DNA of 64,000 nt from the NCBI GenBank assembly GCA_964504265.1, contig CAZDEU010000001.1, positions 4,412 through 68,411 of the forward strand, given 5' to 3'. Both the position numbers and the translations under genes were made by a program. The DNA comes from an uncultured Bacteroidales bacterium (GTDB lineage Bacteria > Bacteroidota > Bacteroidia > Bacteroidales > JAKIYJ01). Numbering within the stretch: position 1 is the stretch's first letter; each line of letters begins with the position of its first letter. Shown here one piece after another: positions 16,924-47,193 of this stretch. The notes below the pieces were generated by a model, which worked only from the letters and a program-made list of their open reading frames with translations, had not been told where the DNA came from and did no database searches.

Positions 16924-16953
16924 CAGGTTTTTAATCAGAACCTGTTAAACTGA
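16924..16953 (-). promoter_or_regulatory. pseudoknot-like leader element, copy 1
   Basis: CAGGTT 16924-29 pairs with AACCTG 16939-44. TCAG 16935-38 pairs with CTGA 16950-53. Confidence 0.6.
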
Positions 16954-16970
16954 ATTTATGATTTTATTAA

Positions 16971-17014
16971 GTTTAATTTATTTTATAATTATTTTTATAT
17001 AAAATAATTTAAAC
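16971..17014. repeat. A/T palindrome P6 (type B)
   Basis: GTTTAATTTATTTTATAATTATTTTTATATAAAATAATTTAAAC. Confidence 0.9.
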
Positions 17015-17042
17015 TTTTATTTTTAAGAATTTAAATATGTTT

Positions 17043-17237
17043 CTAATCATTTTTATATTGCATAATTGTACTTACAGTTTTTTGTATAGATGCAGTCATA
17101 ATAGAATCGACAAATTGAAATGCTAATAATCCAAATAATATACCAATCATTTCTAAACAACAAATATTGAAAGCCGTATGGATTATAAAATATCTATAAA
17201 ATCCGCATAATAAAATAAATAATATATTTACACTCAT
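17043..17237 (-). CDS. small two-TM membrane protein
   Basis: 64 aa and hydrophobic. SD AAGGAGA 5 nt upstream of the ATG. Confidence 0.4.
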   Translation of the reverse strand: MSVNILFILLCGFYRYFIIHTAFNICCLEMIGILFGLLAFQFVDSIMTASIQKTVSTIMQYKND

Positions 17238-17292
17238 ATAATCTCCTTATCTTTTTTATTTTATATTTATATAATAATTTTTTAATTTTTTT

Positions 17293-17661
17293 TTATTTTA
17301 TTTCTAATAAATTTTTTGGTAACATGTTTGATGTTGGCGTGACATATATTCTTATACCACAATCCTGACCGCAGAAATAATTTCTGGTTACTAATATTTC
17401 ATTATCATTTGCTATCCATTTTGGTTGTTTACTTTCCTGTATTGCTGGATGGAAATTATGATAACTTTTTGAATCTCCAATTACAATACCTTCATTATTT
17501 AATACGGTGTAATATGTTTTACTCCCGCCGTCCCAGTAACTCGTCGTTTCAATTTCTTTGTTATTATCTATTATTTCAACGCTTATTTTACGGCCTTTAT
17601 AATCTGGATAAGCCGTATCAATAATTATTTTAGCGTCTTTTCTATTTAATTTTATATTCAT
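17293..17661 (-). CDS. hypothetical protein
   Basis: 122-aa ORF with SD. Preceded by pseudoknot-like leader copy 2. Confidence 0.5.
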   Translation of the reverse strand: MNIKLNRKDAKIIIDTAYPDYKGRKISVEIIDNNKEIETTSYWDGGSKTYYTVLNNEGIVIGDSKSYHNFHPAIQESKQPKWIANDNEILVTRNYFCGQDCGIRIYVTPTSNMLPKNLLEIK

Positions 17662-17682
17662 TTTAATATTCCTTTCTTATTT

Positions 17683-17712
17683 CAGGTTTTTGATTGGAAC
17701 CTGTTAAACCAA
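17683..17712 (-). promoter_or_regulatory. pseudoknot-like leader element, copy 2
   Basis: CAGGTT 17683-88 pairs with AACCTG 17698-703. TTGG 17694-97 pairs with CCAA 17709-12. Confidence 0.6.
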
Positions 17713-17721
17713 ATTTATTTG

Positions 17722-17928
17722 TTAACTAATTTCAAATTTTCGTTTATCAACTCTACCTGATGTGATAATCTCTATATCAGGTATTTGAGGAAAATCTGAT
17801 TTTAAACTTTCCCTTATACTTGATATTTCATCTTCATATTCAGTATTAATTACTAAATATTTTGGCTGTCTATTATTTTTATATTTGAACAATGATAATT
17901 GGGTGTATATTTCTTTATTATTTAACAT
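17722..17928 (-). CDS. hypothetical small acidic protein, first gene of promoter cassette A
   Basis: ATG 17928. SD AAGGGG in leader GGGGAAATTAAAATG. About 48 nt downstream of the predicted -10. Confidence 0.5.
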   Translation of the reverse strand: MLNNKEIYTQLSLFKYKNNRQPKYLVINTEYEDEISSIRESLKSDFPQIPDIEIITSGRVDKRKFEIS

Positions 17929-17982
17929 TTTAATTTCCCCTTTTTCTTTTTTTATTTTTATCCCTTAACCCTTTATATTTTT

Positions 17983-18011
17983 ATTATAACATATTATAAT
18001 AAAAATGTAAA
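17983..18011 (-). promoter_or_regulatory. sigma-70-type promoter, cassette A: TTTACA-17 nt-TATAAT with TGn extended -10
   Basis: -35 is the reverse complement of 18006-18011. -10 is the reverse complement of 17983-17988. TGT lies at 17989-17991. Confidence 0.7.
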
Positions 18012-18048
18012 TAGTTTTTATAAAATAATTTAAAATAAAAATAAAAAA

Positions 18049-18075
18049 GCATTGATAACCTTTTATTATCAATGC
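18049..18075. terminator. bidirectional intrinsic terminator, cassette A
   Basis: GCATTGATAA / TTATCAATGC, a 10-bp stem flanked by an A-run and a T-run. Lies just after the nrdG stop. Confidence 0.75.
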
Positions 18076-18095
18076 TTTTCACGGTAAAAATAATT

Positions 18096-18686
18096 TTAAA
18101 ATAAATCTAGTTCTGCTTGAAATTTAATATCTGGAAAGTTTTTTATTATCCAATTTTTATCCTCTACATTTAAACCTTTCCATAAAGTATTTCTAAATTG
18201 ATAATTTATTCCGGACCTGGAAATTATATCAATGCTCCTATATAGATTATCTATATTATTATAATGGAAATATTTTGAATAATTTTCAAATTTAGATTTT
18301 ATATCCATTGCTACAAAATCAATTAATTTATTATCAATAATATTTTTTAATAATTCTGGATTAGTGCCATTAGTGTCAAGTTTTATTTTTTTATTTGTCC
18401 GCTGTTTTAAATAATGTAATAAATATAATAAATCATTTTCTTGTAATGTTGGCTCACCACCACTTATTACAATTCCATTTGCTAAATTAGTTATAACATC
18501 ATAAACGGTATGAATTATTTGTTCTTTTGTGAATATGCCAAATTCTCGCATTGCTTTGCGGTTATGGCAATATTCACAGGTTAAATTGCAACCATTAAAA
18601 AATATTACTGATGATATATAACCTGGATAATCTATTAATGATGATTTTTGAAATCCAAACAATTTAATATTTTGAAAATTATTCAT
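18096..18686 (-). CDS. nrdG: anaerobic ribonucleotide reductase activating protein (radical SAM)
   Basis: CNLTCEYCHN (CxxxCxxC) near the N-terminus. About 196 aa, directly downstream of nrdD. Confidence 0.85.
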   Translation of the reverse strand: MNNFQNIKLFGFQKSSLIDYPGYISSVIFFNGCNLTCEYCHNRKAMREFGIFTKEQIIHTVYDVITNLANGIVISGGEPTLQENDLLYLLHYLKQRTNKKIKLDTNGTNPELLKNIIDNKLIDFVAMDIKSKFENYSKYFHYNNIDNLYRSIDIISRSGINYQFRNTLWKGLNVEDKNWIIKNFPDIKFQAELDLF

Positions 18687-18706
18687 TTATCAATTAGTCC
18701 TTTCAA

Positions 18707-18750
18707 GTTTAAATTATTTTATATAAATTTTTATATAAAATAATTTAAAC
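18707..18750. repeat. A/T palindrome P7 (type C)
   Basis: GTTTAAATTATTTTATATAAATTTTTATATAAAATAATTTAAAC, between nrdD and nrdG. Confidence 0.9.
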
Positions 18751-18761
18751 TATATAATAAA

Positions 18762-25498: not shown

Positions 25499-27058
25499 TT
25501 AAATTATTGATTTTTTATTATCTGTTATTGATAATTCTTTTATTAAATCTTCTACTTTTAGATTATTCTTTTTGCAATAATCTTCTATTGTTACCATCGA
25601 ATATCTTATCCCATTAATTATTTTAAATTCATCAGTTACTTTATACGGCGATACAGGCATTAATACCATTTCGCTTTCATAATCTGTAATAAATGTTGGA
25701 TTATATAATATTATTTGCTCACCATTAAATCTTGTATTTATATTTTTTTCGTAAAAGTTAATTGTTATTGTTTCCTGAAAGTCTTTTAATGTCTTAAAAT
25801 ATGACATATCAAATGTTGAAATGAACTCTTGATTATAACCTTTTATGTTATTTATCAAAACCAATTTATCATTTATATATAATTTATTATTTTCAACTTT
25901 AAATTCAACATATTCTGTCGGCTTCAATCCTTTATGATTTTTATTTTTTATCTGTGTATTTGATAATGCTTCTAAAAGTCTATTTTTATTTACTGTTATT
26001 TTATATGCTAATTTATTTTCTTCAGGCGTAACATTTTTTAATTGCTGTTTGTTTATTGGATTTTTCATTTCTACTGTTATTAATTTTTGATTGTATTTGC
26101 TATTGAAATCATCAGCAGAATAAAAACCGTCCGATAACTCGGATTTTATTTTATATGCTACTGCACCATTTGTAATATAAGCGAATTTATCTTCAACATT
26201 GAAGCCTTTATAATTCGGTGCTATTGGTTGTAATTTTAAACTATTATAAATATCTATTGCATTATTTTTTATTTTGCTTGTCGCTTTAATTTCATAAGCA
26301 TTATCTAATCTATTATAAAATGCTTCGTCATTATCTAAAAATAACATTGATTTTGCAAATGTTATGTCATTAGCTTCATATGCTCTTCCATTACGATAAA
26401 CTTTTGCATTTTTGCCATTATTGGCGCACATTGCAATTATTTTAAATTTATTATCTGATAATAGTATTGGTGATTTTGTAGCTTCTAAAGATAGTGTTAT
26501 ATCAGTTAAATATTTTATTGCAGTTTTTAAAATATTCACATTGAAAAATGTTACAAAGTAATCAACGCTTGAATCTTTAACTATTACTTTAGCATTTTTT
26601 ACAGGTATTTCATTTATATATAAAACATTTTCAACTACTTCAATTTTTATATATTCAATAGGTTTAATAGATTTTACAAATTGTTTTATTGTTTGTGGTC
26701 CTAACGATTTTATTACTTCTTCGCTTTCAAAAAATCCTTTTATGTTTTCAGTTTTAACTTTTTCCTGTGTTTGATTTAATATACTAGTTAAATCTTTTTT
26801 GTTAGTTTTAATTTCATAACATATATTTTCTGGAGTGGCGTGTTTAAATAATGATGCTGGAATATAATTATAACCATCTGCTATTTTATTTAAATTGTTA
26901 TCATATAATCCATCGAGCATTTCAGTTTTAACTGATAAACATATATGACCGTTACCAATATATGCAATATTATTTTCAACATTTGCACCGTCAAATGATT
27001 TGCCGCTTATACCATATTTTTCTGCATATTCTGTCAATGTTTTAATTATATTTTTCAT
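25499..27058 (-). CDS. hypothetical protein made of two homologous halves
   Basis: Internal duplication: KSFDGANVENNIAYIGNGHICLSVKTEMLDGLYD...PIEYIKIEVVENVLYINEIPV versus YKGFNVEDKFAYITNGAVAYKIKSELSDGFYS...PTEYVEFKVENNKLYINDKLV. Confidence 0.6.
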   Translation of the reverse strand: MKNIIKTLTEYAEKYGISGKSFDGANVENNIAYIGNGHICLSVKTEMLDGLYDNNLNKIADGYNYIPASLFKHATPENICYEIKTNKKDLTSILNQTQEKVKTENIKGFFESEEVIKSLGPQTIKQFVKSIKPIEYIKIEVVENVLYINEIPVKNAKVIVKDSSVDYFVTFFNVNILKTAIKYLTDITLSLEATKSPILLSDNKFKIIAMCANNGKNAKVYRNGRAYEANDITFAKSMLFLDNDEAFYNRLDNAYEIKATSKIKNNAIDIYNSLKLQPIAPNYKGFNVEDKFAYITNGAVAYKIKSELSDGFYSADDFNSKYNQKLITVEMKNPINKQQLKNVTPEENKLAYKITVNKNRLLEALSNTQIKNKNHKGLKPTEYVEFKVENNKLYINDKLVLINNIKGYNQEFISTFDMSYFKTLKDFQETITINFYEKNINTRFNGEQIILYNPTFITDYESEMVLMPVSPYKVTDEFKIINGIRYSMVTIEDYCKKNNLKVEDLIKELSITDNKKSII

Positions 27059-27083: not shown

Positions 27084-27115
27084 CAGGTTTTTATTCAGAA
27101 CCTGTTAAACTGAAT
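27084..27115 (-). promoter_or_regulatory. pseudoknot-like leader element, copy 3
   Basis: CAGGTT 27084-89 pairs with AACCTG 27099-104. ATTCAG 27093-98 pairs with CTGAAT 27110-15. Confidence 0.6.
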
Positions 27116-27120
27116 TTATA

Positions 27121-27711
27121 TTATTTTACTTCTTTTACTAATACTCTGAAGTGTGCTTTATATATGTCACCTGCAGCTAATATTGTAGTTACTTTTACTC
27201 TTTTGTTTTCACATTGAACTGTGCCGTTTAAATTTCCGTCTTCTGCTAAATGTAAATTATTGACTGATATTATTTTACCACCTACTTTTTCTATTCTATT
27301 TATGAAGTCTAATCTTCTTTTATTTAATTCTTTATCTATCCAGCAATGTATCTCGCTTGCTGTAAATGCTTTACTTATTGAATTTAATACAAATTGTTTA
27401 TATTTCATATCTCTGAAAGAAAATATGAAATTATTGAAGTTAATTTTAAGAGGTTTATAAATATTAAATAACTCTGTGGCTTTAATTATGCGAGCATCAA
27501 ATATATTTATCGTATTTTTACTTCTATCTCTGATGATTCCTGATTCTACAAAGAATATTTCATCGTTATTCAAATTCTTTTCTTGTATATAATCGGCATA
27601 AGCAATTCTACTAGCATCCATTGATTCGTCTAATTCTTTAGCCCTTAACTGATTTTTATTTAATGTTGCTATTACCATTTCTTTTATATTTTCAAAAAAT
27701 TTAGTAAACAT
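27121..27711 (-). CDS. hypothetical protein, first gene of promoter cassette B
   Basis: Start moved to ATG 27711 (leader GGGGAAATTAAAATG is identical to cassette A). The track start at 27729 is a TTG. Confidence 0.5.
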   Translation of the reverse strand: MFTKFFENIKEMVIATLNKNQLRAKELDESMDASRIAYADYIQEKNLNNDEIFFVESGIIRDRSKNTINIFDARIIKATELFNIYKPLKINFNNFIFSFRDMKYKQFVLNSISKAFTASEIHCWIDKELNKRRLDFINRIEKVGGKIISVNNLHLAEDGNLNGTVQCENKRVKVTTILAAGDIYKAHFRVLVKEVK

Positions 27712-27766
27712 TTTAATTTCCCCTTTCAAATTTTTTATTTTTATTTATTTAACCCTTTATATTTTT

Positions 27767-27795
27767 ATTATAACATATTATAATAAAAATGTAAA
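27767..27795 (-). promoter_or_regulatory. sigma-70-type promoter, cassette B (identical core)
   Basis: -35 at 27790-27795, -10 at 27767-27772, 17-nt spacer. Confidence 0.7.
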
Positions 27796-27832
27796 TAGTT
27801 TTTATAAAATAATTTAAAATAAAAACAAAAAA

Positions 27833-27859
27833 GCATTGATAATGTAATATTATCAATGC
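27833..27859. terminator. bidirectional intrinsic terminator, cassette B
   Basis: GCATTGATAAT / ATTATCAATGC, an 11-bp stem flanked by A- and T-runs. Confidence 0.75.
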
Positions 27860-27881
27860 TTTTGACGATAAAAATAATTTA

Positions 27882-28064
27882 TTAAATAATTCTTGATTTT
27901 TTATTTTTGAAGGCTAAAAACATATTACCGTCAGTTTTATTTATATAAATTCTATTATTTATTCGTTTACTTCTTAATATCCCTTTTAATGTTAACTGAT
28001 ATAATTTGCTATAAATCAAACGATTTTCTCTAACAAAATCAATTAGTTTTATATAATCTTCCAT
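27882..28064 (-). CDS. small DNA-binding (excisionase/MerR-like HTH) protein, tentative
   Basis: 60 aa, basic. Pattern IKLIDFVRENRLIYSKLYQLTLKGIL. Confidence 0.3.
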   Translation of the reverse strand: MEDYIKLIDFVRENRLIYSKLYQLTLKGILRSKRINNRIYINKTDGNMFLAFKNKKSRII

Positions 28065-34300: not shown

Positions 34301-37300
34301 GGCATATTAACAGTTAGTTTCTCTATATCTTGTATTGTTATATTTTCAATATTTATTAAATATTGAAAACTGTCTTGTGTATTTATTTTCATACCTTTAT
34401 TCCCACATTCACTTATTATTGATAGATCTCTAGTCTGCATTATCTTATCTAAATAATTATTTACAATATTTGATGGTATTGTATATTTATCTAATAAATA
34501 TCTAATAATCTCTGCTTCATTTTTACGTATCATATCAAAAGCATAATCAATATCATCACTATATCTTATTGTTTCAGGTGCTAGTGCTTTTATTTTTTCT
34601 ATATCTCCAGTTCTAATGGCTATATAAAAATCATCGTGTTCTATTTTTGCGCCTGATTTGATAAGTAATTTTAATAAATCAATATTACCATATTGTATAG
34701 TTGATGATGCTAGTGTTATATTTAATCCTGGATAATTATTAACTATGAATTCTATAACCGGCATATTATTATTACTTATAGCTTTATTCAATATTTTTTG
34801 AGGGTCTATAATTTTATTATATTGTTTTAATATAGTAAGCATATCAATACTTTTAGTAAATTTAATAGTGCCTTGTGTAATTATATTTGCTGAATAATTA
34901 TCATCATAATCTGGATAACCTTGTTTTAATAATTCTTCTAATAAATCAACTCTTTCTGTGTTTACTGCAAAATAAATAGTAGTGTAATAAGCATCTTTTC
35001 CTATTCCCATCATTTTTGTAAAATATAATATATTTTCTAAAGTTCCTTCTCTGTATATCTCTGTCATAATTTTATTTTTATCTGATGCGCTCATATGTGA
35101 TATATTTGCTTCTTTAATAAAATATTCAGTCATATTATAGTTACCGACTTTCGCAAATGCTGTTGCTAAATTTACAAATATAATATTACCACTATTAGCA
35201 GTAAATCTTGCAAGTTCAGTTGCATTAAAGTTATCTTTAATAAAATCTTCAGTATAATTATTTACTAATACATCAGTATTAGCTACTATCATATCACTAT
35301 CTTGAATTCCGCCTGACATATCGTCTAATGCGTCGCTTAATTCTTTAGGATTACTTTGATTAACACGATATTTATATATTTCAAAAGGCCGTAAATATAA
35401 TAATAATGTATTAATATCTGCTAAGTTATTATTTAATATTAAATGTTTAAATATCGACATATATAATTCGTCTAAAGATTTTGTAGATTTATATTTGTAA
35501 TTTTTTAAAATTTCAGTTTTAATATTTTTATCAACTTGTTCTATATTTATTTTTGAAATCATACTTAATATTACATTTTGTGGTTCTCCATGTATGATAG
35601 ATTTATTGATAATAGTTTTTGCAAGTTCAATTTCTTCAGGAGATTTGAATGTTGGAATATTATTTATCATTCTAAAAATAGTACTATTTTTTACTAAATT
35701 TTCATTAACTAATTTAGTATATATTGTAGCTGCATAAGAAACATCTGCCTTATCAATTGAAAATAAATTATTAATAGCTCTTGAAACTAATTCTCTATCT
35801 AACCCTGAATTTAATAATGAATCAATATTATTAACATCATTAGATTTGAATATCTTAATTAATATATCTGGCGTAAGTAAAAATTTAGCATCAACTTTAA
35901 TAATATCTTTTATTAATTTTGAAATATGAGTGGTTTTAAAATCGATAGTTGGAAATAAAAGTTCAAAAGACTCTTTACTTTTATTATCAAAAAGTATTGA
36001 ACTTAATACCATCATTCTATCAACATCTTTAGGTGATTTACATAACGACATTAAATTATAAACATATAGTAAAGTGTTTGACCTTGATATTTTATCATCA
36101 CCACTATCAGCTAGTTCAAAGTGTGCTTTATCTTTAGAAATTATATACCCTATAACTAAATTACTATATTCATTATTTTTTGAAGTAACCGCGATTGATT
36201 TAAAATTATTGTTTAATGGTGCTACTTTATAAATTAATTCTGTCATTAATTTATCTTCATAATATTTTATATCTTCTACATTACTCATTACTAACATTTC
36301 ATTCTGGGCTGATAGTTTATTTATATCATCTAACTTATAAGCCTCTTCTGATGCTTGATATGTTGCAAAAAGTCTATCTTTAGGTATTGTATCAAAAATA
36401 CATATATGGCCTTTTTCACTAGTAATTTCTGCTCTAAAAGTCATAGCTTCTTTATAATCATCTGTAAATGATTCTATCGCAAATATATTATAATCTATTT
36501 CGCCATTTTTATCTGTAACGCTATTTAAAATATCATTATATTGTTTTCTTGGTATTTGACATGACCTAAAAACATCATAAGTATTATCAATTAGAAATTC
36601 CTGATTCTGCTTATAAACTAATTTAATATTATCATCGCTAAATAATAAATTTTTATTTATAGGCCTACCAAAATGGTCTTTACCATTATCAAAATTATCA
36701 ACAACTTGTTTAGGTGTTAAATTTTTTAAATAATCTCTAGAACCTATAACTATTAATAATGCTTTTTCAACTTTTGATTTAGTTAATCCCATTTTAACCA
36801 TATCTAATCTTAATTTTATTATTTGTGCTGAAGTTGTTTGACCTTTCCAATTCTTTAAAAAATATTCATACTTACTTGAGTCAAATGGTACATCTTCCTG
36901 TAATATATTTTCTCTTACAAGTTGAACTTCTGATTTAGGTTGAACTGGAATTGTAATATTATCTATTGCTTCAATATTTATTTTTAATTTCCCGTTATCA
37001 TATATGATATACTTATCTATAATGGTTTTCATAATAGATTTATCTATTGAATTATATATTTCATTAAATTCTTTTATATTATTTTTTAATTTTTCTTCTT
37101 CAATATATTTATCTATTTTAGCAAGTTCTTCAATTGAATTTACTTTATCAGCATATTTATTTATTATGTTATACATAATATCTGATTTAGTATTGAATAT
37201 ATTTTGAAATTCTTTTGCTTGCTCGTCAAAGTCAATTTCTACAGGCTCTTCTATATAAGGAATTGATTCAAATATATCTTCCGATGGTGTGTCTTTTACT

Positions 37301-40300
37301 TCAAATAATTCGTAATTGTCTTCCCAAAAATGATATCTTAAATTAGTATCATCAAAAGATTCTCCTTCCAAAGGCTCTTCTGACGCTAAATCATCATACA
37401 TTTCTTGCGTTAAATATATCTTATCTATATTATCTATAAATGTTTTGGAGCCTATTCTTAATTCATCATAACCATAATCCTTACCAGCATCAGCATCATA
37501 ATGCGCATATAAACCCTCCGTTTCTGGTATCTTACTTTTAACTACAATATTTCTATTAATGGTTCCTTTATTATAAGGAGTTGAAACTGATATATTTCCT
37601 TGAGCCCCTGATAAAAATAATTCTTGTAATTCCTCGATACTTCTAACGCCATGAGCTACTTCGCCTTCCGCTTTAACTTTATATAAACCTTTACTAAAAC
37701 CTTCCATTGGTTTGGGTTGCTCTAATGGTGTTATTTTCATTAAAGGTAAAGAAGATATTTCTATTGAATGTAATTCGCTTGTATTTTTTGATGTATACTT
37801 AGGAATATATTTTAGTAAGTAATTATAAATATCGTTACGTTCTAATTCAAGGGCTATTTTTAAAAATTCTGAACCATTAACTCCTTCTTGTAATAATCTC
37901 TTTATTGTAACCAAATCACCTTGTTTTATAGCCTTTACTATTGTAATTTTTAATAACTTATCTATATTACTTTTTACTTCTGTAATAGGAGGTTTTATTA
38001 TACCTGTACTCGATATTAATGTTGTATCTTTCTGCTCTTTTAGCTTTGATTTTAATAATTCAAATTTATCAATTATACTTTTAGCTTGATTTAGTAAAGT
38101 GATTTTATCTTTTCTATAAACAACTATTTCGTAACTTTTATATATTTCAATAGCGTGTGTTGAATCTTCAATTGCTTTAGCTCTTAAATAATTTTCTGAA
38201 GATATTTGTATAATTCCTGTAGATATTTGTATGGAATCATTATTTAATTTATAATGTGATAAGTCGTTATCAATCATAAAACGCTGTATTAATCTTAAAT
38301 TATCTCCAGCATCATTATAAATTATTTTAGGTTTTTCAACATCTTTTTTGATAAATTCTTTTATATCTTTATAATTATATTTCACTAACATATCTTGTAT
38401 AACTTTATCTTTAATTAGTATATCAAAATTCATCTCAGTTTTATTAATAAGCTGCAATATAATATTGATATCTTCAATATCAATATTAGTGAATTGTTTT
38501 AAATAATTCGCAAATTTATTTGGTATAAGTTTATTATAACCATGATTGATTATATTATGTATTTCATCAATTCTTTCAAATACATTTACACCAAATAATT
38601 GACATATATTTTTTATAAAAGTTCTATATGCTGGGTAACCATAAAAGGTTCCTTTTGCAACATCTATTTTTATATTTATATCAACTCCTAATAATTTACT
38701 AAATCTATTTACTGTTGTAATTGCTTTTAAATCATTTATACCTTCTAATATACGTTTAATATGTGTATCATTTGTTACATCTTCATCACTAGATATATGA
38801 TCACATTGTTTATGTAAATATTCATGATACAGTAAACAAAGGAAATCAATATCTAATTTTGTTACTTTATTCTCTTTTGCAATATTTAAAAGACCCTTGA
38901 GGAATGAATCAGCTATATGCTTTGAGTTATCTACTAACATTATATTACTATCATTTTTTACATAAACAAATGCTACTGCTTCATGTTTCTTTTTATATAA
39001 CTCAATCTCATAATCAAATACAGCTCCTGGGTGTAATTCAATTGGTAACTCTGGAATAATTGAAGTATTCAAAAATTTTAAAAATTCATCGGCAGTTGTT
39101 ATATTTTTAATTTTCTCTTTATTATCTGCTATTTTTTTATTTAAAGTTTCGTTTGATTTTTTAACTAATAATTCTATTTCTTTTTTATAATCAGGTTTTT
39201 CAATCTCTGCTGCTTGTGCTGATGGCGGTATTAAAAAGTTATTTACTAAATATGTTAATGCTGTGGTTGCTGCGGTTTTAAATAAATTTTTAAAATCTTT
39301 ATATTGGTCTTTATTTGCTTCTTTAACTTTTGCTGCTTCTTGTAATACTGCCGTCCTATAATCATCTAAAGTAACTAAAACATCTCTATTGATGTCCCAG
39401 TCAATTTTATCTTTATCAACTTGTAAAAAAGTATTGGTTAATAATGCTGTTTCTGGCTCTGATAATTTTTGAGCTTCTTTAACAAAATCAATTGCTTCTT
39501 TGACATATTTTTCAGTTATTATTTTCTTATTAAATTCTGTCATTAAATCTGGGGGTAAGTTTGCGGTAGTATATAAACCATCAAAACCGTCATAACCTAT
39601 TTCATTATAAACCTTATTAGTTAATGTAAACATAACTTTTTCAACATTAGTTTCATAATTAGGTGATACAGGTTTTGTTAATAAATCTTTTATAAATTCA
39701 GTTGCTTTTATATAATAGTCTAAAATTTTATCTTTATACAATTCATCAAGCATATATGTTTCTTCAACTGGTGCAATTATTTTTTCTAATTCTGATTTAT
39801 ATTGTTGAAGTTTTAAATAATCATCAAATAAATCATCATTATATAAAGTCTTATCTTTTAAATTACCTTTCAAATAGTCATTTAAAATTATGTCTAAAGT
39901 AAGTAATTGCTGTTGTTTATTTTTATCGTATAATGCTTTTAAAGTTTCAGCATATATTTCTGCTGGTATTGTATTTAGATGACTGGCATAAATATTATTC
40001 AAATGTTTTTCAACTATTAATTCATCTATTCCTGAAGCAATTTCTTTTATTGTTTGTCTTGGTTTTAAGTTTGCCGCTATATCCATTATATTTGCTTTAC
40101 TTTTATTTAATGCTTCTGCTAATACTCTTCTCGTTTCATATGTCGGCATTGAATCTTTTGTGATTTGCATTATATCATTTTTAGTTTGTATTGCGCTTTT
40201 AGTTAATATATCTGCTGCAATTGTTATGACTTTTTTCATACCTGCTGCAATTAAATAAGGTAAAGCATCAGTAGTTTTTTCTGTTGATTTTATTTCTCTC

Positions 40301-41379
40301 TTGGCAATTTTATTTGCTTCTAATACTGATTGAGCTGCTAAATCTCCATAAGCGTCTTTAACTATATATACTAATTTTTTTCTGGTATCTGCTGCTGGTG
40401 CAATCCTTGTTGCAATTATTCCTATTTTACCTCTATCTAAACTTGTCCCTGCTCTTATGCCAAAACTTCTTGATAACTGTAATAAGAAGTCAACATAATC
40501 AAAATATTTCTTTTCATCTGGCGGTAGTTTTCCTTCTGACGCTGTATATAGAAATTTCATTACTTTATCATTCGCTTTGGCTAAAAATAAACCGGTCTTT
40601 AATATTGGAGCCATTTGTGGAAATGCAAAAAATAAACCCTGATTAACTAATTGCCCAAAAGCATATCTTGGGTCTTTCCATTTGGTTACTTCATCTTTAA
40701 TATGGTCTATTGCTAAATCAAGAACTTTATCATATCCTTCAATAAATATTGAACCTAATTTTTCAGTTGTTTTCTTATAAGTTTCTATATAACCCTCAGG
40801 TTTTTGTTCTGCTTTTGTTTTTTGCAAATCTTCGTTATGATAAGCATTGAATTTCTTATTATAAGAAGGTTCAACTTTATCTTTGTATTTTTGTGTTTTT
40901 CTGAAATTGGTTATTAAATCTTCATTATCTATTTTTTCAATAATATAAACTGGTTGCAAGGTTGAACGGCAATTGAAATGTAATGGTGGTAAATAATTTA
41001 ATACCTCATCTTTTGGTATAATTTTATTCGCTAATGCTTCGCATATATCGGTAGTTCTGGAATCTACAATGGATACAAATCTATATGCTATTATAGCAGG
41101 GTCGTCCATAGTATCTGCTAATACTCCGTGATTATAAGCACCGTGTAATGCTGTCCTTGCAACTGCGTTCGCTGATGCTTTAGATTTTATATCTGTAAAA
41201 TTTGATTGAAGTGTGCTTGCTATCTGTTTTGATGATTTTCCCTCTTTTATTCCGGCATCTATTTCTTTCTTAAATTTATTGAGTAAAGATGTTACAACTG
41301 AAGAAGTTGAATCGTCTGTTATTTTACTTAAATAATCTAAAGTACTTGCTGGAACAAATTCAGTATCTAATTTTGCCAT
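31363..41379 (-). CDS. giant MuF (SPP1 gp7 / Mu gpF)-domain minor head protein with HExxH, ART-like block and ankyrin-like repeat array
   Basis: Uninterrupted ~10-kb ORF. Start moved to ATG 41379 (SD GAGGGTG 6 nt upstream); the track start at 41394 is a TTG. Motifs are listed as sub-features. Confidence 0.85.
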   Translation of the reverse strand: MAKLDTEFVPASTLDYLSKITDDSTSSVVTSLLNKFKKEIDAGIKEGKSSKQIASTLQSNFTDIKSKASANAVARTALHGAYNHGVLADTMDDPAIIAYRFVSIVDSRTTDICEALANKIIPKDEVLNYLPPLHFNCRSTLQPVYIIEKIDNEDLITNFRKTQKYKDKVEPSYNKKFNAYHNEDLQKTKAEQKPEGYIETYKKTTEKLGSIFIEGYDKVLDLAIDHIKDEVTKWKDPRYAFGQLVNQGLFFAFPQMAPILKTGLFLAKANDKVMKFLYTASEGKLPPDEKKYFDYVDFLLQLSRSFGIRAGTSLDRGKIGIIATRIAPAADTRKKLVYIVKDAYGDLAAQSVLEANKIAKREIKSTEKTTDALPYLIAAGMKKVITIAADILTKSAIQTKNDIMQITKDSMPTYETRRVLAEALNKSKANIMDIAANLKPRQTIKEIASGIDELIVEKHLNNIYASHLNTIPAEIYAETLKALYDKNKQQQLLTLDIILNDYLKGNLKDKTLYNDDLFDDYLKLQQYKSELEKIIAPVEETYMLDELYKDKILDYYIKATEFIKDLLTKPVSPNYETNVEKVMFTLTNKVYNEIGYDGFDGLYTTANLPPDLMTEFNKKIITEKYVKEAIDFVKEAQKLSEPETALLTNTFLQVDKDKIDWDINRDVLVTLDDYRTAVLQEAAKVKEANKDQYKDFKNLFKTAATTALTYLVNNFLIPPSAQAAEIEKPDYKKEIELLVKKSNETLNKKIADNKEKIKNITTADEFLKFLNTSIIPELPIELHPGAVFDYEIELYKKKHEAVAFVYVKNDSNIMLVDNSKHIADSFLKGLLNIAKENKVTKLDIDFLCLLYHEYLHKQCDHISSDEDVTNDTHIKRILEGINDLKAITTVNRFSKLLGVDINIKIDVAKGTFYGYPAYRTFIKNICQLFGVNVFERIDEIHNIINHGYNKLIPNKFANYLKQFTNIDIEDINIILQLINKTEMNFDILIKDKVIQDMLVKYNYKDIKEFIKKDVEKPKIIYNDAGDNLRLIQRFMIDNDLSHYKLNNDSIQISTGIIQISSENYLRAKAIEDSTHAIEIYKSYEIVVYRKDKITLLNQAKSIIDKFELLKSKLKEQKDTTLISSTGIIKPPITEVKSNIDKLLKITIVKAIKQGDLVTIKRLLQEGVNGSEFLKIALELERNDIYNYLLKYIPKYTSKNTSELHSIEISSLPLMKITPLEQPKPMEGFSKGLYKVKAEGEVAHGVRSIEELQELFLSGAQGNISVSTPYNKGTINRNIVVKSKIPETEGLYAHYDADAGKDYGYDELRIGSKTFIDNIDKIYLTQEMYDDLASEEPLEGESFDDTNLRYHFWEDNYELFEVKDTPSEDIFESIPYIEEPVEIDFDEQAKEFQNIFNTKSDIMYNIINKYADKVNSIEELAKIDKYIEEEKLKNNIKEFNEIYNSIDKSIMKTIIDKYIIYDNGKLKINIEAIDNITIPVQPKSEVQLVRENILQEDVPFDSSKYEYFLKNWKGQTTSAQIIKLRLDMVKMGLTKSKVEKALLIVIGSRDYLKNLTPKQVVDNFDNGKDHFGRPINKNLLFSDDNIKLVYKQNQEFLIDNTYDVFRSCQIPRKQYNDILNSVTDKNGEIDYNIFAIESFTDDYKEAMTFRAEITSEKGHICIFDTIPKDRLFATYQASEEAYKLDDINKLSAQNEMLVMSNVEDIKYYEDKLMTELIYKVAPLNNNFKSIAVTSKNNEYSNLVIGYIISKDKAHFELADSGDDKISRSNTLLYVYNLMSLCKSPKDVDRMMVLSSILFDNKSKESFELLFPTIDFKTTHISKLIKDIIKVDAKFLLTPDILIKIFKSNDVNNIDSLLNSGLDRELVSRAINNLFSIDKADVSYAATIYTKLVNENLVKNSTIFRMINNIPTFKSPEEIELAKTIINKSIIHGEPQNVILSMISKINIEQVDKNIKTEILKNYKYKSTKSLDELYMSIFKHLILNNNLADINTLLLYLRPFEIYKYRVNQSNPKELSDALDDMSGGIQDSDMIVANTDVLVNNYTEDFIKDNFNATELARFTANSGNIIFVNLATAFAKVGNYNMTEYFIKEANISHMSASDKNKIMTEIYREGTLENILYFTKMMGIGKDAYYTTIYFAVNTERVDLLEELLKQGYPDYDDNYSANIITQGTIKFTKSIDMLTILKQYNKIIDPQKILNKAISNNNMPVIEFIVNNYPGLNITLASSTIQYGNIDLLKLLIKSGAKIEHDDFYIAIRTGDIEKIKALAPETIRYSDDIDYAFDMIRKNEAEIIRYLLDKYTIPSNIVNNYLDKIMQTRDLSIISECGNKGMKINTQDSFQYLINIENITIQDIEKLTVNMPAGLSAIYFYSPVCYTRLDIIKYVIENKKYTPDTSLLSQNIIHGNIEIVKYLISKKIQSPNVITSLIKNIPDLDLIKTALENDSYKYDIDDVRLAINLQYNDIVKLLIDKKPDILNNPLELIEAAFNSNNTEIYDLLTSEYSFDINPDDDIKAIKEFKNDIFKIIVKNKTKIDKKKLLDVAVTAGNDDAVKILIDSGVTSTPVLNKVIKNKNNILFTYMIEHGFESSEALSYAVEINATNLVKMIIENQGRADVDVLLPAVKNNNLEIAKMIIDNIDKHISRSADAVKEAVKNNNFDMLKLIYQDKTQLTSDTLIDAISHSNFDITKFIIDEAFKTDTATLSNALIEAVIYNNNDIFDYLLQHNAKLPAVTIALERAIMNKNEYLVNKLLDLGAEDLDAAMEAMKYDLDNKIIIKLIDKGMVNESAFTMALHKNNDTILQILLNKNIIPSDILDEEDIYEHPDLVKELINKGFTSNDISENVIKQNNIDLFNFIIDKNIVDLTDTLMNIITTRNQTFFDIIMQKNIDITNSFILTKALKESNAYMTQKLIDKGFHTVNGAKYAFWHDLPDIAIDMINRGMADDSTIYAAVGKNSVKGVELLIDKGLVDKEIFNEKDLYEYPDMVKLLVNKGIKNNVALVQAVNLDNFDLVKFLVDNKVADPSDYSLLARALSSSDNRIAEYLIDNHIFNEEVLTSLINSKNFELFKRVIEKENYFSDKYPEKIKYEACLNIIYNNNGLFLDYVLSKGYYDADLVSHISNVKNNKNMMSIILKYTPVDDKSLLTGIQNGDIKAVKKIIGKGNIADSLKEELVETAIKYNQDDIADYLISKDIFASKDLHTLAKEGKFDLVKKLLHKKNYFKPEYEKEINEYIVQDTFKMLAANAQIDIIKYIINEGYYTQHLFEYYISANNLEVVKLLVKNAPADEENLKLVAQNLKDLALVKILISKGAKSTQLLQDLSTATDVESVKIYKYLLKYMPK
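31366..35050 (-). repeat. ankyrin-like repeat array (dozens of degenerate ~30-33-aa units, with ~150-aa higher-order duplications)
   Basis: Recurrent A(L/V)xxA(V/I)xxxNxx(I/L)(V/A)KxLIxxG(A/V) units, e.g. LLDVAVTAGNDDAVKILIDSGV and ALSYAVEINATNLVKMIIENQG. The C-terminal pair DNHIFNEEVLTSLINSKNFELFKRVIEKENYF / SKDIFASKDLHTLAKEGKFDLVKKLLHKKNYF shows a higher-order duplication. Confidence 0.7.
36280..36620 (-). other. ADP-ribosyltransferase-like R-S-E block
   Basis: VFRS (Arg codon 36565-36567) ... IESFTDD ... AQNEMLV (Glu codon 36298-36300). The R-to-E spacing is 89 aa. Confidence 0.4.
38812..38826 (-). other. HExxH zincin-like motif (HEYLH)
   Basis: Plus strand atgtaaatattcatg is the reverse complement of CAT GAA TAT TTA CAT. 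This is a motif only. Confidence 0.3.
40945..41190 (-). other. Phage_Mu_F-like head morphogenesis domain
   Basis: ANAVARTALHGAYNHG...RFVSIVDSRTTDICEALANKIIPKDEVLNYLPPLHFNCRSTLQPV (D-x-R-T-x-x-x-C ... PP-x-H-x-x-C-R-S). Confidence 0.8.
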
Positions 41380-41395
41380 TATAATCACCCTCAAA

Positions 41396-42194: not shown

Positions 42195-42234
42195 AACTGA
42201 TATATTATAATGAAAATTAAACTGATAATAACAA

Positions 42235-42271: not shown

Positions 42272-42295
42272 TGTTACTTGTTATCTTTAAACAAA

Positions 42296-42340: not shown

Positions 42341-42342
42341 CC

Positions 42343-43869: not shown

Positions 43870-43996
43870 AATTGTTTATCTCCTTTATGTTAAAGTTTTA
43901 ATTTAAAATTACAAAATTTTAAATTAAAAAAATCTAATTTTCAATCATTGAAAGATATATAAAAGGTAAAAAACATAAACATATTAAACAATAAAA

Positions 43997-44033
43997 AATA
44001 CTATTATAAGACAATAAATCTTATAATGGTATT
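43997..44033. terminator. hairpin (same family)
   Basis: AATACTATTATAAGA / TCTTATAATGGTATT followed by TTTT. Confidence 0.55.
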
Positions 44034-44077
44034 TTTAAATTATTTTATATAAAAATAATTATAAAATAATTTAAATC
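44033..44077. repeat. A/T palindrome P14 (type A)
   Basis: Overlaps the stop codon of 44071..44448. Confidence 0.85.
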
Positions 44078-44448: not shown

Positions 44449-44470
44449 TTTAAATTTCCTTCCTTTAATT

Positions 44471-44539
44471 TAATTTTTTATATATAATAAAAAATAAATT
44501 TTTTTAATTAAAACTTATTGAAGTTTTAATTTAAAAAAC
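44471..44539. repeat. 69-nt direct repeat DR1
   Basis: TAATTTTTTATATATAATAAAAAATAAATTTTTTTAATTAAAACTTATTGAAGTTTTAATTTAAAAAAC. Confidence 0.85.
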
Positions 44540-44656
44540 GATAATTGCTATATTAGGAGTAATCCTATTGTAGCAATTTTTTATTATAAGGTATTTCAAT
44601 AAACCTAAAAATTTTATTTTTTAATTAAGATTATTAAATCTTAATTAAAAAACAAT

Positions 44657-44687
44657 AACAGGTTACGACAATAAATCGTAACCTGTT
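44657..44687. terminator. 12-bp GC-containing hairpin with flanking A- and T-runs
   Basis: AACAGGTTACGA / TCGTAACCTGTT. Confidence 0.6.
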
Positions 44688-44755
44688 AATTTTTTATATA
44701 TAGGTAAAAATAAATTTTTTTAATTAAAACTTATTGAAGTTTTAATTTAAAAAAC
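44687..44755. repeat. 69-nt direct repeat DR2
   Basis: Same as DR1 except ATAGGTAAAAAT in place of ATAATAAAAAAT. Confidence 0.85.
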
Positions 44756-44832
44756 ATAAACATATTAAACAATAAAAAAATACCACTATAAGATTATTTC
44801 TTATAATGGTATTTTTTAAATTTCATATTAGA

Positions 44833-44878
44833 GTTTTTAAATTATTTTATATAAAAATTTATATAAAATAAATTAAAC
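44833..44878. repeat. A/T palindrome P15 (type C-like)
   Basis: AAATTATTTTATATAAAAATTTATATAAAATAAATT. Confidence 0.85.
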
Positions 44879-44880
44879 TT

Positions 44881-45429
44881 TTATTTAATATTTGGTTTCT
44901 TAAACTTCTTAATTTCTTTTGGTTCGACATTTGCGATTTTGTTATCTGGTGGAATTGTTTTCTTTATTTTACCTGTATGTTCGATATGCTCGGTTGGAAT
45001 ATCAAACATCGGATTATCCGATAATTTGATTTTTCCATCTGATATTGTTGTGGTTGACATTTCATTTATTCTTAATTTCTGGTCTAACTCTTTTGCTTTA
45101 ACTTTTTTAAGTTTATGTAAACAGTCGGAGCATAAACCTGCAAGTGTGTCTGTGTAAACCTGGTCGACGATTTTACCGCATTTAGTGCAAGTATATTTAT
45201 TCTCGTTAAACCGTTGGAGATTATTATTCTTAATAAATTCCATTATATAATGTTTTGGTTTACCTGTTAATTCTGATATTAATGTAACATTGAAATTGTT
45301 ATCAAATATCTGTTTAATAAAATGTCGTCTAACTTCCTTATTTTCTTTATCTTTTTCCATTGAACATTGAACGCATAAACCATTGCTTGTTAAATTGTCT
45401 AAATCTCTTTTACATCTTCCACATAACAT
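44881..45429 (-). CDS. double zinc-ribbon / HTH protein
   Basis: CGRC...CVQC, then the HTH-like VTLISELTGKPKHYIMEFIKN, then CTKCG...CSDC. Confidence 0.45.
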   Translation of the reverse strand: MLCGRCKRDLDNLTSNGLCVQCSMEKDKENKEVRRHFIKQIFDNNFNVTLISELTGKPKHYIMEFIKNNNLQRFNENKYTCTKCGKIVDQVYTDTLAGLCSDCLHKLKKVKAKELDQKLRINEMSTTTISDGKIKLSDNPMFDIPTEHIEHTGKIKKTIPPDNKIANVEPKEIKKFKKPNIK

Positions 45430-45464
45430 TTTTTAATTCCTCCGTTTAATTTTTATTTTAATAC

Positions 45465-45500
45465 TTTAAATTATTTTATATAATTTAAAATATTAAAACG
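45465..45500. repeat. A/T palindrome P16 (degenerate)
   Basis: Left arm TTTAAATTATTTTATATA is intact. The right arm is diverged. Confidence 0.5.
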
Positions 45501-45514
45501 GATTTTACATATTT

Positions 45515-46204
45515 TTATATACCGTTTGGTATATGTGATTTATTTATTTCATTTTTATTATTTTTATAGTCATTAACTCTATCTATGTTATCAATATAAT
45601 ATTTTACATTAGCACAGTCAAAAATTGTGTCACCTTTATTATCTCTTAAGTATATATTTATTTCATCTTTATATTCAAGTAATTTATATACAACATCTTT
45701 TGAATTGGCATATATTGCATACATTAATGCAGTCCTATGACTATTATCTGTTACATTAATATCAATACCTGCTGATATGTAATTTATAATTGTGTCAATG
45801 TCATTTTCAACAGCAGCAAAGAACCAATCAATATAATCATTTACTTTTATTCTTTCTGATATTTCGTTTATTTGTTTTGAGTGTTTATTTGGTATTTCTT
45901 TTTCATTATTTTCTTCTTTATATTCTTTTTTAATAGTATCAAGAATTGCATATATTATTTCAGGTTTATCAATCAAAATATTTATATCTACTTTATTGAT
46001 TAGAGTTTTTAATTCATTTTTTAGTATGATAATATTTTCTTGGGTCTTTTCTTCTTTAAATAAATTTTGTATTGCTCCTTCCATTGTGTATCCATAACCT
46101 ATTACTTCTGTTGAGTTTAAATCATAAGCCTTATATCTATATAATGGTCCCGAATCTGTTGATTCTACTTTTATTGTTTTAGTTAAATTTTGTTCATTAT
46201 TCAT
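45515..46204 (-). CDS. ankyrin-repeat protein
   Basis: GIDINVTDNSHRTALMYAIYANSKDVVYKLLEY...RDNKGDTIFDCA is a canonical ANK pattern. Confidence 0.65.
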   Translation of the reverse strand: MNNEQNLTKTIKVESTDSGPLYRYKAYDLNSTEVIGYGYTMEGAIQNLFKEEKTQENIIILKNELKTLINKVDINILIDKPEIIYAILDTIKKEYKEENNEKEIPNKHSKQINEISERIKVNDYIDWFFAAVENDIDTIINYISAGIDINVTDNSHRTALMYAIYANSKDVVYKLLEYKDEINIYLRDNKGDTIFDCANVKYYIDNIDRVNDYKNNKNEINKSHIPNGI

Positions 46205-46248
46205 TTTTATTTCTCCTTTTATTTCAATATATAATAATTTGTTATTAT

Positions 46249-46280
46249 GTTTAAATTATTTTATATAAAATAATTTAAAC
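46249..46280. repeat. A/T palindrome P17 (32-nt perfect palindrome, no loop)
   Basis: GTTTAAATTATTTTATATAAAATAATTTAAAC equals its own reverse complement. Confidence 0.9.
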
Positions 46281-46439
46281 TTTCAGTTGAGTATTCAATA
46301 ACATTTTTAATATTTTTTATATTATCATAATCTAAATTGTGTAAACTAATTAAAACATTTAGTCCATCATATCCTATTTTTATATATCTATTATGTATTT
46401 TTTATTATTGTAATTTTGGATTATTACATCGATATTCAT
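46261..46439 (-). pseudogene. small ORF needing a -1 shift at an A6 run
   Basis: ATG 46439 (SD AAAGGAAAG) gives MNIDVIIQNYNNKKYIIDI with a stop at 46380-46382. The -1 frame, open from the A-run (46398-46403), reads KIHNRYIKIGYDGLNVLISLHNLDYDNIKNIKNVIEYSTESLNYFI, stop 46261-46263. Confidence 0.3.
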
Positions 46440-46462
46440 TTTACATCTTTCCTTTCATTATT

Positions 46463-46879
46463 TTATTTGCTCAATATCTTGATTGCTTTGGCAACAAATT
46501 CCTTTTGTTCTGATCTATGACAAGTGTAATCACCTTCCCAATCGTGTGTCTGCATAAATTTAAGCATTTCTTTTGTTGATAACCATTTAATTTCATTATA
46601 TAATTCTTTTTGTAATTCAATACATTCTTCCCAAGAATTACAACCTTGTAGCGCATCACAACCAGAACAAGAACCCCAGCCAAAAAGTAAATAACCTATA
46701 TTATTTTTCTTATCTTTAAATAATACTCGAGTATCACCTTGACACTCATCGTCATCTATTTGTAATAATATATCAAAACCAAAAGATTCTAACATATCTG
46801 TATAAGATACACAAAGATCAGAATAATCTTCAGAGAATGATTTTGTGTTAGATTTACAATAATTTTTGATGTTTTTCAT
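46463..46879 (-). CDS. hypothetical protein (Cys-rich core GWGSCSGCDALQGC)
   Basis: 138-aa ORF with SD AAAGGAAAG. Confidence 0.5.
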   Translation of the reverse strand: MKNIKNYCKSNTKSFSEDYSDLCVSYTDMLESFGFDILLQIDDDECQGDTRVLFKDKKNNIGYLLFGWGSCSGCDALQGCNSWEECIELQKELYNEIKWLSTKEMLKFMQTHDWEGDYTCHRSEQKEFVAKAIKILSK

Positions 46880-46897
46880 TTTACATCTTTCCTTTCA

Positions 46898-47143
46898 TTA
46901 TTTTAAAAATTCTCTTTCTTCTTCGCTGCCTGGTCTAAAGAAATTATATGAAGGTTTTGCTGTTTGTTTTAGTTTATCAAAATTTTCTTTATTAATCTCG
47001 TCCTCAGATATTTCAAAGCCATTGCCATCTATTTCAGTTATATAATATTTATTGATTTTCTTGCCCATATAATTCTGATATTGAAATCTGTATATAAATT
47101 TACCTGACTCAACATAATTAATGTTATCTATACCTCTTTCCAT
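46898..47143 (-). CDS. hypothetical protein
   Basis: 81 aa with SD AAGGAGGAG. Preceded by pseudoknot-like leader copy 4. Confidence 0.45.
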   Translation of the reverse strand: MERGIDNINYVESGKFIYRFQYQNYMGKKINKYYITEIDGNGFEISEDEINKENFDKLKQTAKPSYNFFRPGSEEEREFLK

Positions 47144-47162
47144 TTTAACTCCTCCTTAAAAT

Positions 47163-47193
47163 CAGGTTTTTGATTGGAACCTGTTAAACCAAT
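47163..47193 (-). promoter_or_regulatory. pseudoknot-like leader element, copy 4
   Basis: CAGGTT 47163-68 pairs with AACCTG 47178-83. ATTGG 47173-77 pairs with CCAAT 47189-93. Confidence 0.6.

Follow-up and report, generated by a model that had tools for sequence, protein, structure and literature searches.

A small pseudoknot recurring at cistron boundaries in diverse phages: a candidate RNA punctuation element

Why would a phage carry the same short pseudoknot ahead of the ribosome-binding sites of four different genes? The question is raised by a 64,000-nucleotide (nt) stretch of DNA (hereafter, the window) from an uncultured Bacteroidales bacterium (GenBank assembly GCA_964504265.1, contig CAZDEU010000001.1, positions 4,412 to 68,411), in which an original prediction had placed four H-type pseudoknot-like leaders. 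A pattern scan for CAGGTT-N9-AACCTG returned the same four sites, at 16924, 17683, 27084 and 47163, as exact matches; in shuffles scanned with up to two mismatches, 0.73 matches were expected and the observed count was reached in none of 100. Each site is, very probably, transcribed within a minus-strand mRNA and folds as a compact H-type pseudoknot. As to its role, we tentatively favor a cis-acting RNA "punctuation" structure at cistron boundaries, which would affect RNA stability, processing or insulation.

On the minus (sense) strand all four copies have the order S1a-UUUAA-CAGGUU-S1b-L3-AACCUG and span 30-32 nt, S1a and S1b being the arms of stem 1, UUUAA loop 1 (L1), L3 loop 3, and CAGGUU and AACCUG the arms of stem 2 (S2a and S2b). 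In copy 1 (16924..16953), UCAG (16953-16950) pairs with CUGA (16938-16935); L1 occupies 16949-16945, S2a 16944-16939, L3 (UUAAA) 16934-16930 and S2b 16929-16924. Copy 2 (17683..17712) has UUGG (17712-17709) facing CCAA (17697-17694), with L1 at 17708-17704, S2a at 17703-17698, L3 (UCAAA) at 17693-17689 and S2b at 17688-17683. Stem 1 is longer in copy 3 (27084..27115), where AUUCAG (27115-27110) meets CUGAAU (27098-27093) and L1, S2a, L3 (AAA) and S2b lie at 27109-27105, 27104-27099, 27092-27090 and 27089-27084, and in copy 4 (47163..47193), where AUUGG (47193-47189) meets CCAAU (47177-47173) and the corresponding positions are 47188-47184, 47183-47178, 47172-47169 (L3, CAAA) and 47168-47163. 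The two stem-1 types reported at the outset, UUGG/CCAA and UCAG/CUGA, are thus both present. Their outward extension, claimed for two copies of each type, is perfect in just one copy per type: in the copy at 16924 the extension contains a U.U mismatch, and in the copy at 17683 a U.U lies beside the 4-base-pair (bp) core.

Evidence for the fold came from sequences outside the window. A covariance model (R1) was built from 14 non-window sequences; the seed alignment was kept gapless because MAFFT misplaced the variable L1, and the remaining sequences were aligned by the model. Run on the window, R1 returned the four copies as its top matches, all on the sense strand and at 31-34 bits (33.6 bits with an E value of 8e-6 for copy 1; 33.1, 32.1 and 31.2 bits for copies 2, 3 and 4), the next match scoring 19.5 bits. 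All four were also found by a structure-only descriptor. The pairing tests are non-circular. Two broad IMG/VR patterns gave at least 120 matches each. In a sequence-only IMG/VR pattern with every variable position set to N, 10 of the 91 distinct matches listed were complementary at the six free positions; among the same listed matches, permutation gave 0.53 and slid partners gave 0. Three complete IMG/VR scans, with stem 1 fixed and five stem-2 positions free, yielded 75 matches, 50 of which form all five pairs (permutation mean 5.3, maximum 12). An alignment of 38 model matches, 35 of them distinct (A4), has 94-97% of its stem cells paired, compared with about 70% after shuffling and 26-52% with slid partners. 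A seventh stem-2 pair, imposed by no search, covaries as well (GC 11, CG 8, AU 4, UA 2, GU or UG 3), and RNAalifold gives the same 7-bp stem-2 helix. G.U pairs outnumber A.C combinations by 7 to 2, which favors the sense strand, and flanking ORFs (open reading frames), wherever found, lie on the element's own strand. Together, these two findings indicate that the element acts as sense RNA.

The structured RNA of H-type topology originally proposed is borne out by these data: further homologues do show covariation, in both stems and across dozens of unrelated phage contigs, with pairing far above the permutation level. The same data speak against the DNA cruciform that had been offered as an alternative, as the sequence of the stems varies freely while pairing is kept.

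The family is also uniform in its anatomy. Stem 1 measures 4-6 bp, stem 2 measures 6 bp in the window and 7 bp in most relatives, and 0 nt separate the two. In all 35 distinct members, L1 begins with UUU, L3 ends with AAA, a G-C pair closes stem 1 and two U-A pairs open stem 2; the window copies deviate slightly from the family in their UUUAA loop and 6-bp stem 2. These invariant loops and junction pairs fit a triple-helix pseudoknot. From the geometry of such a fold, L1 would lie alongside the AA in the 3′ arm of stem 2 in parallel orientation, as U.A-U major-groove triples require, and the A-rich L3 could dock in the stem-1 minor groove.

How far the element has spread was assessed with several searches. 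A metagenome scan with stem 1 left free produced one real site, on contigs L013/L016 (34% GC), which have no tblastx similarity to the window. The layout there is that of the window (a TTGACA-17-TATATT promoter, a 59-amino-acid (aa) gene, the pseudoknot, then a Shine-Dalgarno (SD) sequence), and stem 1 is of a third type, AAAGG/CCUUU. Most homologues of the gene downstream of the L016 pseudoknot lie within operons that have no pseudoknot. Applied to contigs fetched through L016 phage proteins, the structure-only descriptor gave few matches, some with new stem-2 sequences (CCAGUU/AACUGG, CUGGUU/AACCAG and CCGAUU/AAUCGG); every one of these new sites has a stop codon before it and an SD after it. 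Carriers thus include phages without detectable protein similarity to the window in the regions compared, and contig GC contents range from 27 to 49%. Such a spread over unrelated phages and base compositions argues that the element has either a universal partner or none; carriers also look diverse from this GC range together with the presence of a crAss-type capsid gene or a gp32-like gene on some contigs. Apart from L013/L016, whatever matched the strict motifs in IMG/VR, metagenomes and GTDB genomes was due to chance, and blastn of the element against GenBank phages gave SD-like noise only. Rfam had no match at the stand-alone pseudoknot sites of the window and of contigs L010/L011, including in searches at E values up to 10. 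The stand-alone pseudoknot unit appears undescribed so far: a literature search found no description of it, and large candidate catalogues (PMC10690425) could hold it as an unnamed entry.

The position of the element relative to genes was compared between the 50 fully paired scan matches (members, 5/5 stem-2 pairs) and the 22 matches with at most 3/5 pairs (non-members). An ORF stop lies within 12 nt upstream of 41/50 members and 6/22 non-members, the typical distance from stop codon to stem 1 in the family being 5-8 nt. An SD begins within 3 nt downstream in 14/50 members and 0/22 non-members, and 17/50 members have an SD of any kind, together with a start codon, in the 40 nt that follow. U-rich sequence after stem 2 is not enriched (9/50 members, 8/22 non-members). 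For 19 of 37 sites there is a sigma-70 promoter, matching at 11 or more of 12 positions, 212-741 nt upstream, where about 12% would be expected, and the succession of promoter, first gene and pseudoknot seen in the window recurs in L016, L270 and L234. AT-rich contigs of gut/rumen type share this layout (strong promoter, ORF1, pseudoknot, SD-ORF2), the SD in these phages beginning 0-1 nt after a 7-bp stem 2; some have a second unit after ORF2, and two or three units may succeed each other in one operon. Elsewhere, the gene preceding a unit encodes a crAss-type capsid protein, a gp32-like protein, a DUF932 protein or an AAA ATPase, and in the tRNA clusters of L305 two units begin 3 nt after tRNA genes. 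What follows the unit varies (SD, promoter, U-tract or tRNA); in contigs of the L349 type, for example, a DUF932 gene lies upstream and a sigma-70 promoter immediately downstream. With ORF stops and tRNA ends upstream and mixed features downstream, the constant neighbor of the pseudoknot is the end of the upstream RNA unit, not a ribosome-binding site.

In the window, the distances to flanking genes proved shorter than first claimed. Gaps of 9, 5 and 6 nt, not 10-15 nt, separate the upstream stop codon from copies 2, 3 and 4. Copy 1 has no ORF directly upstream; an AT-only 41-nt palindrome (16973..17013, minus strand) stands in place of the ORF end and stops 16 nt before the model-matched start at 16957. 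From the 3′ arm of stem 2 to the next SD the distance is 5-10 nt in all four copies, where 10-25 nt had been given, and the copies are trailed by AAAU or AUUUUAAGG.

One known RNA contains the same unit. In contig L341, the unit found by pattern at 8233-8262 lies inside a match to the wcaG RNA motif (RF01761, 52 bits), and in L136 a unit begins 8 nt after a wcaG match. The 3′ hairpin of wcaG has the arrangement G-UUU-[7 nt ending UU]-C...AAA-[7 nt], with the upstream arm complementary to the start of the loop, and its consensus CCugG-UUU-CuugcUU-CcaG-UcAAAGA-gcaaG has the same invariants as our 38-match alignment. By sequence comparison, the window unit can be described as a stand-alone variant of the module inside this orphan motif. 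The two differ in that wcaG is a 98-nt composite with, on our own reading, two units in tandem, a central GC hairpin and UGGUG tails, whereas in the window each copy is one isolated unit of 30 nt, with A-rich sequence and then an SD after it. The wcaG model has no match in the window at its gathering score (42 bits), and none at E values up to 10 on 16850-17800 or on L011/L010. Contexts differ too: wcaG was described from marine metagenomes and T4-like cyanophages, its ligand not being known (PMC2864571), whereas the window phage has 24% GC and anaerobic NrdD/NrdG. A search for later literature on wcaG returned genome-annotation papers only.

These observations can be accommodated if the pseudoknot acts in cis, with no dedicated partner, by resisting unwinding at the boundary of RNA units. 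It starts just beyond the reach of a ribosome positioned on the stop codon upstream, and translation therefore need not melt it. The folded structure would then halt exonucleases or define processing at the boundary, so that the promoter-proximal, immediate-early cistron and the downstream cistrons could have separate fates. In the window it may in addition provide the next ribosome-binding site with a fixed structured 5′ edge and keep the SD free. A position between cistrons and downstream of highly expressed genes is shared with REP hairpins (malE-malF), terminator hairpins, and the 5′ stabilizers and RNase Y-processed operons of Firmicutes (PMC3997798), and the differential stability that we suppose for the element is the role proposed for intercistronic and 3′ stabilizers (PMC3997798); the latter are plain hairpins or bound ribosomes, as opposed to a conserved pseudoknot with invariant loops. 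A boundary role covers all contexts (ORF ends, tRNA ends, sites before an SD or a promoter), and each rival explains a part of them. The operator, attenuator and processing site named in the original prediction are not separable by computation. The contexts in the wider family fit a boundary, processing or stability role better, which comes nearest to the third of these options.

Several findings weigh against this interpretation. The stems are short and AU-rich, and nearest-neighbor folding of the window copies gives stem 2 alone, at -5.5 kcal/mol and with z-scores near 0; with so weak a folding energy, any resistance to unwinding must come from the predicted tertiary contacts. In phages of the gut/rumen subset, AAG within the SD is an alternative pairing partner for L1, an arrangement that has the look of a translational switch. 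The L292 type, in which an AAA ATPase gene, the unit, a U-tract and then a promoter succeed each other, places the unit as a terminator would be placed. The wcaG motif was proposed as a riboswitch candidate (PMC2864571). SD adjacency is over-represented in the 38-match alignment, the SD-adjacent members of which were found in part with a pattern requiring AAGG, and it is from position and fold that a boundary role is inferred. A more far-reaching proposal would cast the unit as a new RNA module universal among phages, in which a triple-helix pseudoknot marks ORF and tRNA ends across very different hosts and is the bacterial equivalent of exonuclease-resistant or "punctuation" RNAs, or else as the minimal sensing unit of the wcaG riboswitch candidate. 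We regard this as conceivable and rather doubtful.

Of the other explanations, control of initiation at the adjacent ribosome-binding site by a phage or host RNA-binding protein that recognizes the pseudoknot, for instance to shut off early genes, has precedents in T4 RegA, the T4 gene 32 leader and ribosomal protein S15 on its own mRNA. Such an operator would account for the short distance to the SD in the window and in gut/rumen phages, and invariant loops on variable stems are what recognition of shape and loop would call for. The SD is nearby in only a minority of the members from the unbiased scans, some units come after tRNAs or before promoters, the genes downstream have no relation to one another, and carriers share no detectable proteins in the regions compared. 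Moreover, the conserved loop bases would sit in helix grooves, poorly exposed. The gene 32 leader is likewise a phage mRNA pseudoknot upstream of a ribosome-binding site; it serves a single gene and nucleates binding of that gene's product along a long AU-rich tract, whereas the present element has unrelated genes downstream and a gap of 0-10 nt to the SD. One relative has its unit after, not before, a gp32-like gene, and neither Pfam nor PHROG linked the genes downstream of the window copies to gp32. On balance an operator seems unlikely, and so does a transcription signal, in which the stem-2 hairpin would make transcription pause, weakly terminate or attenuate it, or modify RNA polymerase after the first early gene in the manner of nut/put sites. 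Copies that follow the first gene downstream of a strong early promoter, as three of the four in the window do, are placed like lambda nutR; the U-tract and promoter of the L292 type and the promoter directly after the unit in the L349 type mark the usual site of a terminator; and a terminator-like stem at 44630-44703 of the window re-uses the stem-2 arms. No U-tract follows the window copies, however, and a terminator scan of 16500-18300 found only the terminator of the promoter cassette there. Nor is U-richness a trait of members, and a terminator is hard to square with two or three units in succession within one operon. The 5-10 nt between each pseudoknot and the SD of the next gene contain no promoter, so transcription must read through the pseudoknot. 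When the window copies were read for boxA- or boxB-like features, none were seen: the hairpin has a 6-bp stem and a 9-nt loop that pairs upstream.

A ligand-sensing mini-riboswitch of the preQ1-I/SAM-II type, with the junction as pocket and folding that frees or masks the SD, is distinctly unlikely. In its favor are the size and topology of the smallest riboswitches, the invariant junction, the presence of the unit in an RNA that its discoverers rated a probable riboswitch (PMC2864571), and, in gut/rumen members, an extended alternative hairpin that masks AAG within the SD. The element resembles preQ1-I and SAM-II/SAM-V RNAs in being H-type and about 30-35 nt long, with a U-rich L1 and an A-rich L3 right before an SD. 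It differs from them in having no inter-stem (L2) nucleotide, in leaving the SD 5-10 nt outside the fold, in lying near unrelated, non-metabolic genes, and in occurring in several dispersed copies per genome by different genes, tRNAs and promoters. The SD-masking hairpin cannot form in the window copies, and no Rfam riboswitch matched even at E values up to 10, the preQ1-I and SAM-II/SAM-V covariance models having been run on 16850-17800 and L010/L011. That the pseudoknot acts as a roadblock to the terminating ribosome, at its mRNA entry channel, and so modulates termination, recoding or re-initiation is improbable. The gap between stop codon and stem 1 does fall within the 5-9 nt spacing of stimulatory pseudoknots, both in the window and at the family mode, and the U-rich L1 and A-rich L3 at the junction are likenesses to frameshift, read-through and telomerase-type triple-helix pseudoknots. 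Predicted triple-helix features of this sort are akin to those of mechanically strong frameshift stimulators. Unlike these, the element has no consistent slippery site and no conserved extension frame: read-through would add 5, 9 or 23 codons only, and the next gene does not follow in a conserved frame. Units directly after tRNA genes lie where no ribosome terminates, and copy 1 has no ORF directly upstream. Recoding in particular was rejected, as a heptamer occurs at one site only and with the wrong spacing. Least probable is an element acting as DNA, whether a cruciform, a protein-binding palindrome or a homology block for cassette exchange. The four copies are nearly identical, and the gene enclosed by promoter cassette and pseudoknot is not the same in the window and in its close relative L010, which resembles PeSL-mediated shuffling (PMC4122927). 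A DNA-binding protein would not, however, tolerate stems that vary freely across phages with pairing kept, and tolerance of G.U on the sense strand only, on the coding strand of the neighboring ORFs, speaks against it as well.

Four further candidates were discarded. The copies are not ToxI-like repeats of a type III antitoxin, being dispersed over 30 kb and neither tandem nor head-to-tail by a toxin gene. A hairpin promoter for a virion RNA polymerase was dismissed when the 3343-aa ORF turned out to be a MuF and ankyrin polyvalent protein. A Bacteroidetes -7 promoter motif is inconsistent among the copies, and the stems are too short for an RNase III site.

Cis-acting pseudoknots of this small size are rare in bacterial and phage mRNAs, and the known classes have informed studies of translation, RNA decay and ligand sensing. 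The covariation of the present element is unusually clean and its junction invariant, and it sits at gene boundaries of early operons, which include anti-defense-type genes (LPD29, DUF932). The link to wcaG provides that orphan motif with a 30-nt core open to direct probing. Should nuclease blocking or insulation of ribosome-binding sites prove true, the unit would be a compact part for synthetic operons.

The genes around the window copies are all on the minus strand. Pseudoknot 1 is followed, after 8 nt, by the SD of a 48-aa ORF (16754..16900). Pseudoknot 2 lies between a 68-aa gene without family match (17722..17928), whose stop codon is the one 9 nt upstream, and a 122-aa gene (17293..17661) whose ATG is 21 nt downstream. 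Pseudoknot 3 separates a 196-aa gene (27121..27711, from the ATG at 27711) from a 519-aa gene (25499..27058), and pseudoknot 4 a 92-aa gene (47200..47478) from an 81-aa gene (46898..47143). As originally stated, three of the four copies (2, 3 and 4) come after the first gene of a sigma-70-type promoter cassette. The cassettes, 162 nt each and on the minus strand, form a terminator-plus-promoter repeat family (D7). Cassette 1 (17943..18104) drives the 68-aa gene; cassette 2 (27727..27888), upstream of the 196-aa gene, and cassette 3 (47496..47657), upstream of the 92-aa gene, are respectively 86% and 91% identical to it. A scan of cassette 1 located an intrinsic terminator hairpin at 18080-18044 and, at 18011-17983, a near-consensus, extended -10 promoter, TTTACA-17-TATAAT, with an upstream TG and 11/12 matches; by reading, cassettes 2 and 3 have the same promoter and terminator sequence.

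A close relative of the window phage is represented by Logan contigs L010/L011, which encode a 519-aa gene product 91% identical to that of the window; this is the one homologue among 5.8 billion proteins, and no relatives of the gene were found in IMG/VR. Copy 3 of the pseudoknot is retained there despite a different upstream gene. At L010 28-480, a 150-aa gene with an LPD29 domain occupies the place of the 196-aa ORFan of the window (27121-27711), the flanks on both sides being conserved: the promoter 5′ untranslated region on one, the pseudoknot and the 519-aa gene on the other. A gene cassette has been swapped between repeated flanks. Repeated terminator and promoter together with gene replacement in L010 liken the three cassettes to the PeSL cassettes of T4-like phages (PMC2839356, PMC4122927), which bracket variable small genes. 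The likeness concerns the flanking cassettes and not the pseudoknot, which forms the other boundary of the swapped segment. Another relative (L041, portal 64% identical) has the promoter cassette and lacks the pseudoknot.

A recurrent junction was seen on about ten IMG/VR contigs (L349, L351, L353, L354, L356, L359, L365, L369, L372, L380, L383), consisting of a gene of about 316 aa, TAG, 5 nt, the pseudoknot, 3 nt and TTGACT-17-TATAAT. There the pseudoknot occupies the place that the terminator has in PeSL-type cassettes. The gene of about 316 aa has a DUF932 domain in L349, the one copy tested.

Some of the unit-bearing phages have other RNA structures. In gut/rumen carriers, the first gene after the promoter is often accompanied by a plain hairpin directly before the SD (L270 8900-8945; L016 2100-2150; L234, minus strand, about 3990-3950), and the arms of the L270 hairpin, UAGGUU/AACCUA, are those of one of the same phage's pseudoknots. 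Contig L103 has a Pistol self-cleaving ribozyme at 5804-5862 (RF02679, 53 bits against a gathering score of 34.5); a pseudoknot unit with no ORF start nearby lies about 800 nt upstream of it. ROOL RNA (L339 5824-6448, 284 bits) and manA RNA (L344 7506-7701, 103 bits) occur in tRNA-rich phage regions that bear the unit.

The window itself has a GC content of about 24%, with essentially all long ORFs on the minus strand, and its phage genes encode a tape measure protein, a major head protein, a head maturation protease, a portal, a DNA polymerase, the anaerobic NrdD/NrdG and a dUTPase. At the DNA level, no GenBank phage matched the 12 kb of the window that were compared by megablast; the closest portals, about 33% identical, are those of Bacillus and Staphylococcus siphoviruses. 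Next to the portal gene, the 3343-aa ORF (31363-41394, minus strand) combines an N-terminal Mu F-like head-protein domain with many ankyrin repeats, and its product is a giant polyvalent protein, probably injected.

The AT-only 41-nt palindrome found before pseudoknot 1 (TTTAAWTTATTTTATA-N9-TATAAAATAAWTTAA) has at least 15 copies in the window, all on the minus strand: 61707-61667, 52137-52097, 44877-44837, 44075-44035, 42095-42055, 41438-41398, 30367-30327, 24230-24190, 22744-22704, 18749-18709, 17013-16973, 15966-15926, 13021-12981, 10627-10587 and 2619-2579. Most precede the SD of a gene by 8-25 nt, among these genes being those for the DNA polymerase, the major head protein and the 3343-aa protein. 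The palindrome probably serves as a promoter or operator specific to the phage, or else as a weak hairpin signal. The terminator-like stretch mentioned above (44630..44703, minus strand), as read from the sequence, has a 12-bp stem, AACAGGUUACGA/UCGUAACCUGUU, followed by a U-run, and the stem contains the exact stem-2 arms of the pseudoknot. It is overlapped by a 70-nt direct repeat, 96% identical (44470-44539 and 44686-44755). A second direct repeat, of 98 nt and 81% identity (182-279 and 1457-1554), may be a duplicated gene segment; it lies in the sole part of the window with plus-strand coding potential and a higher GC content (36%).

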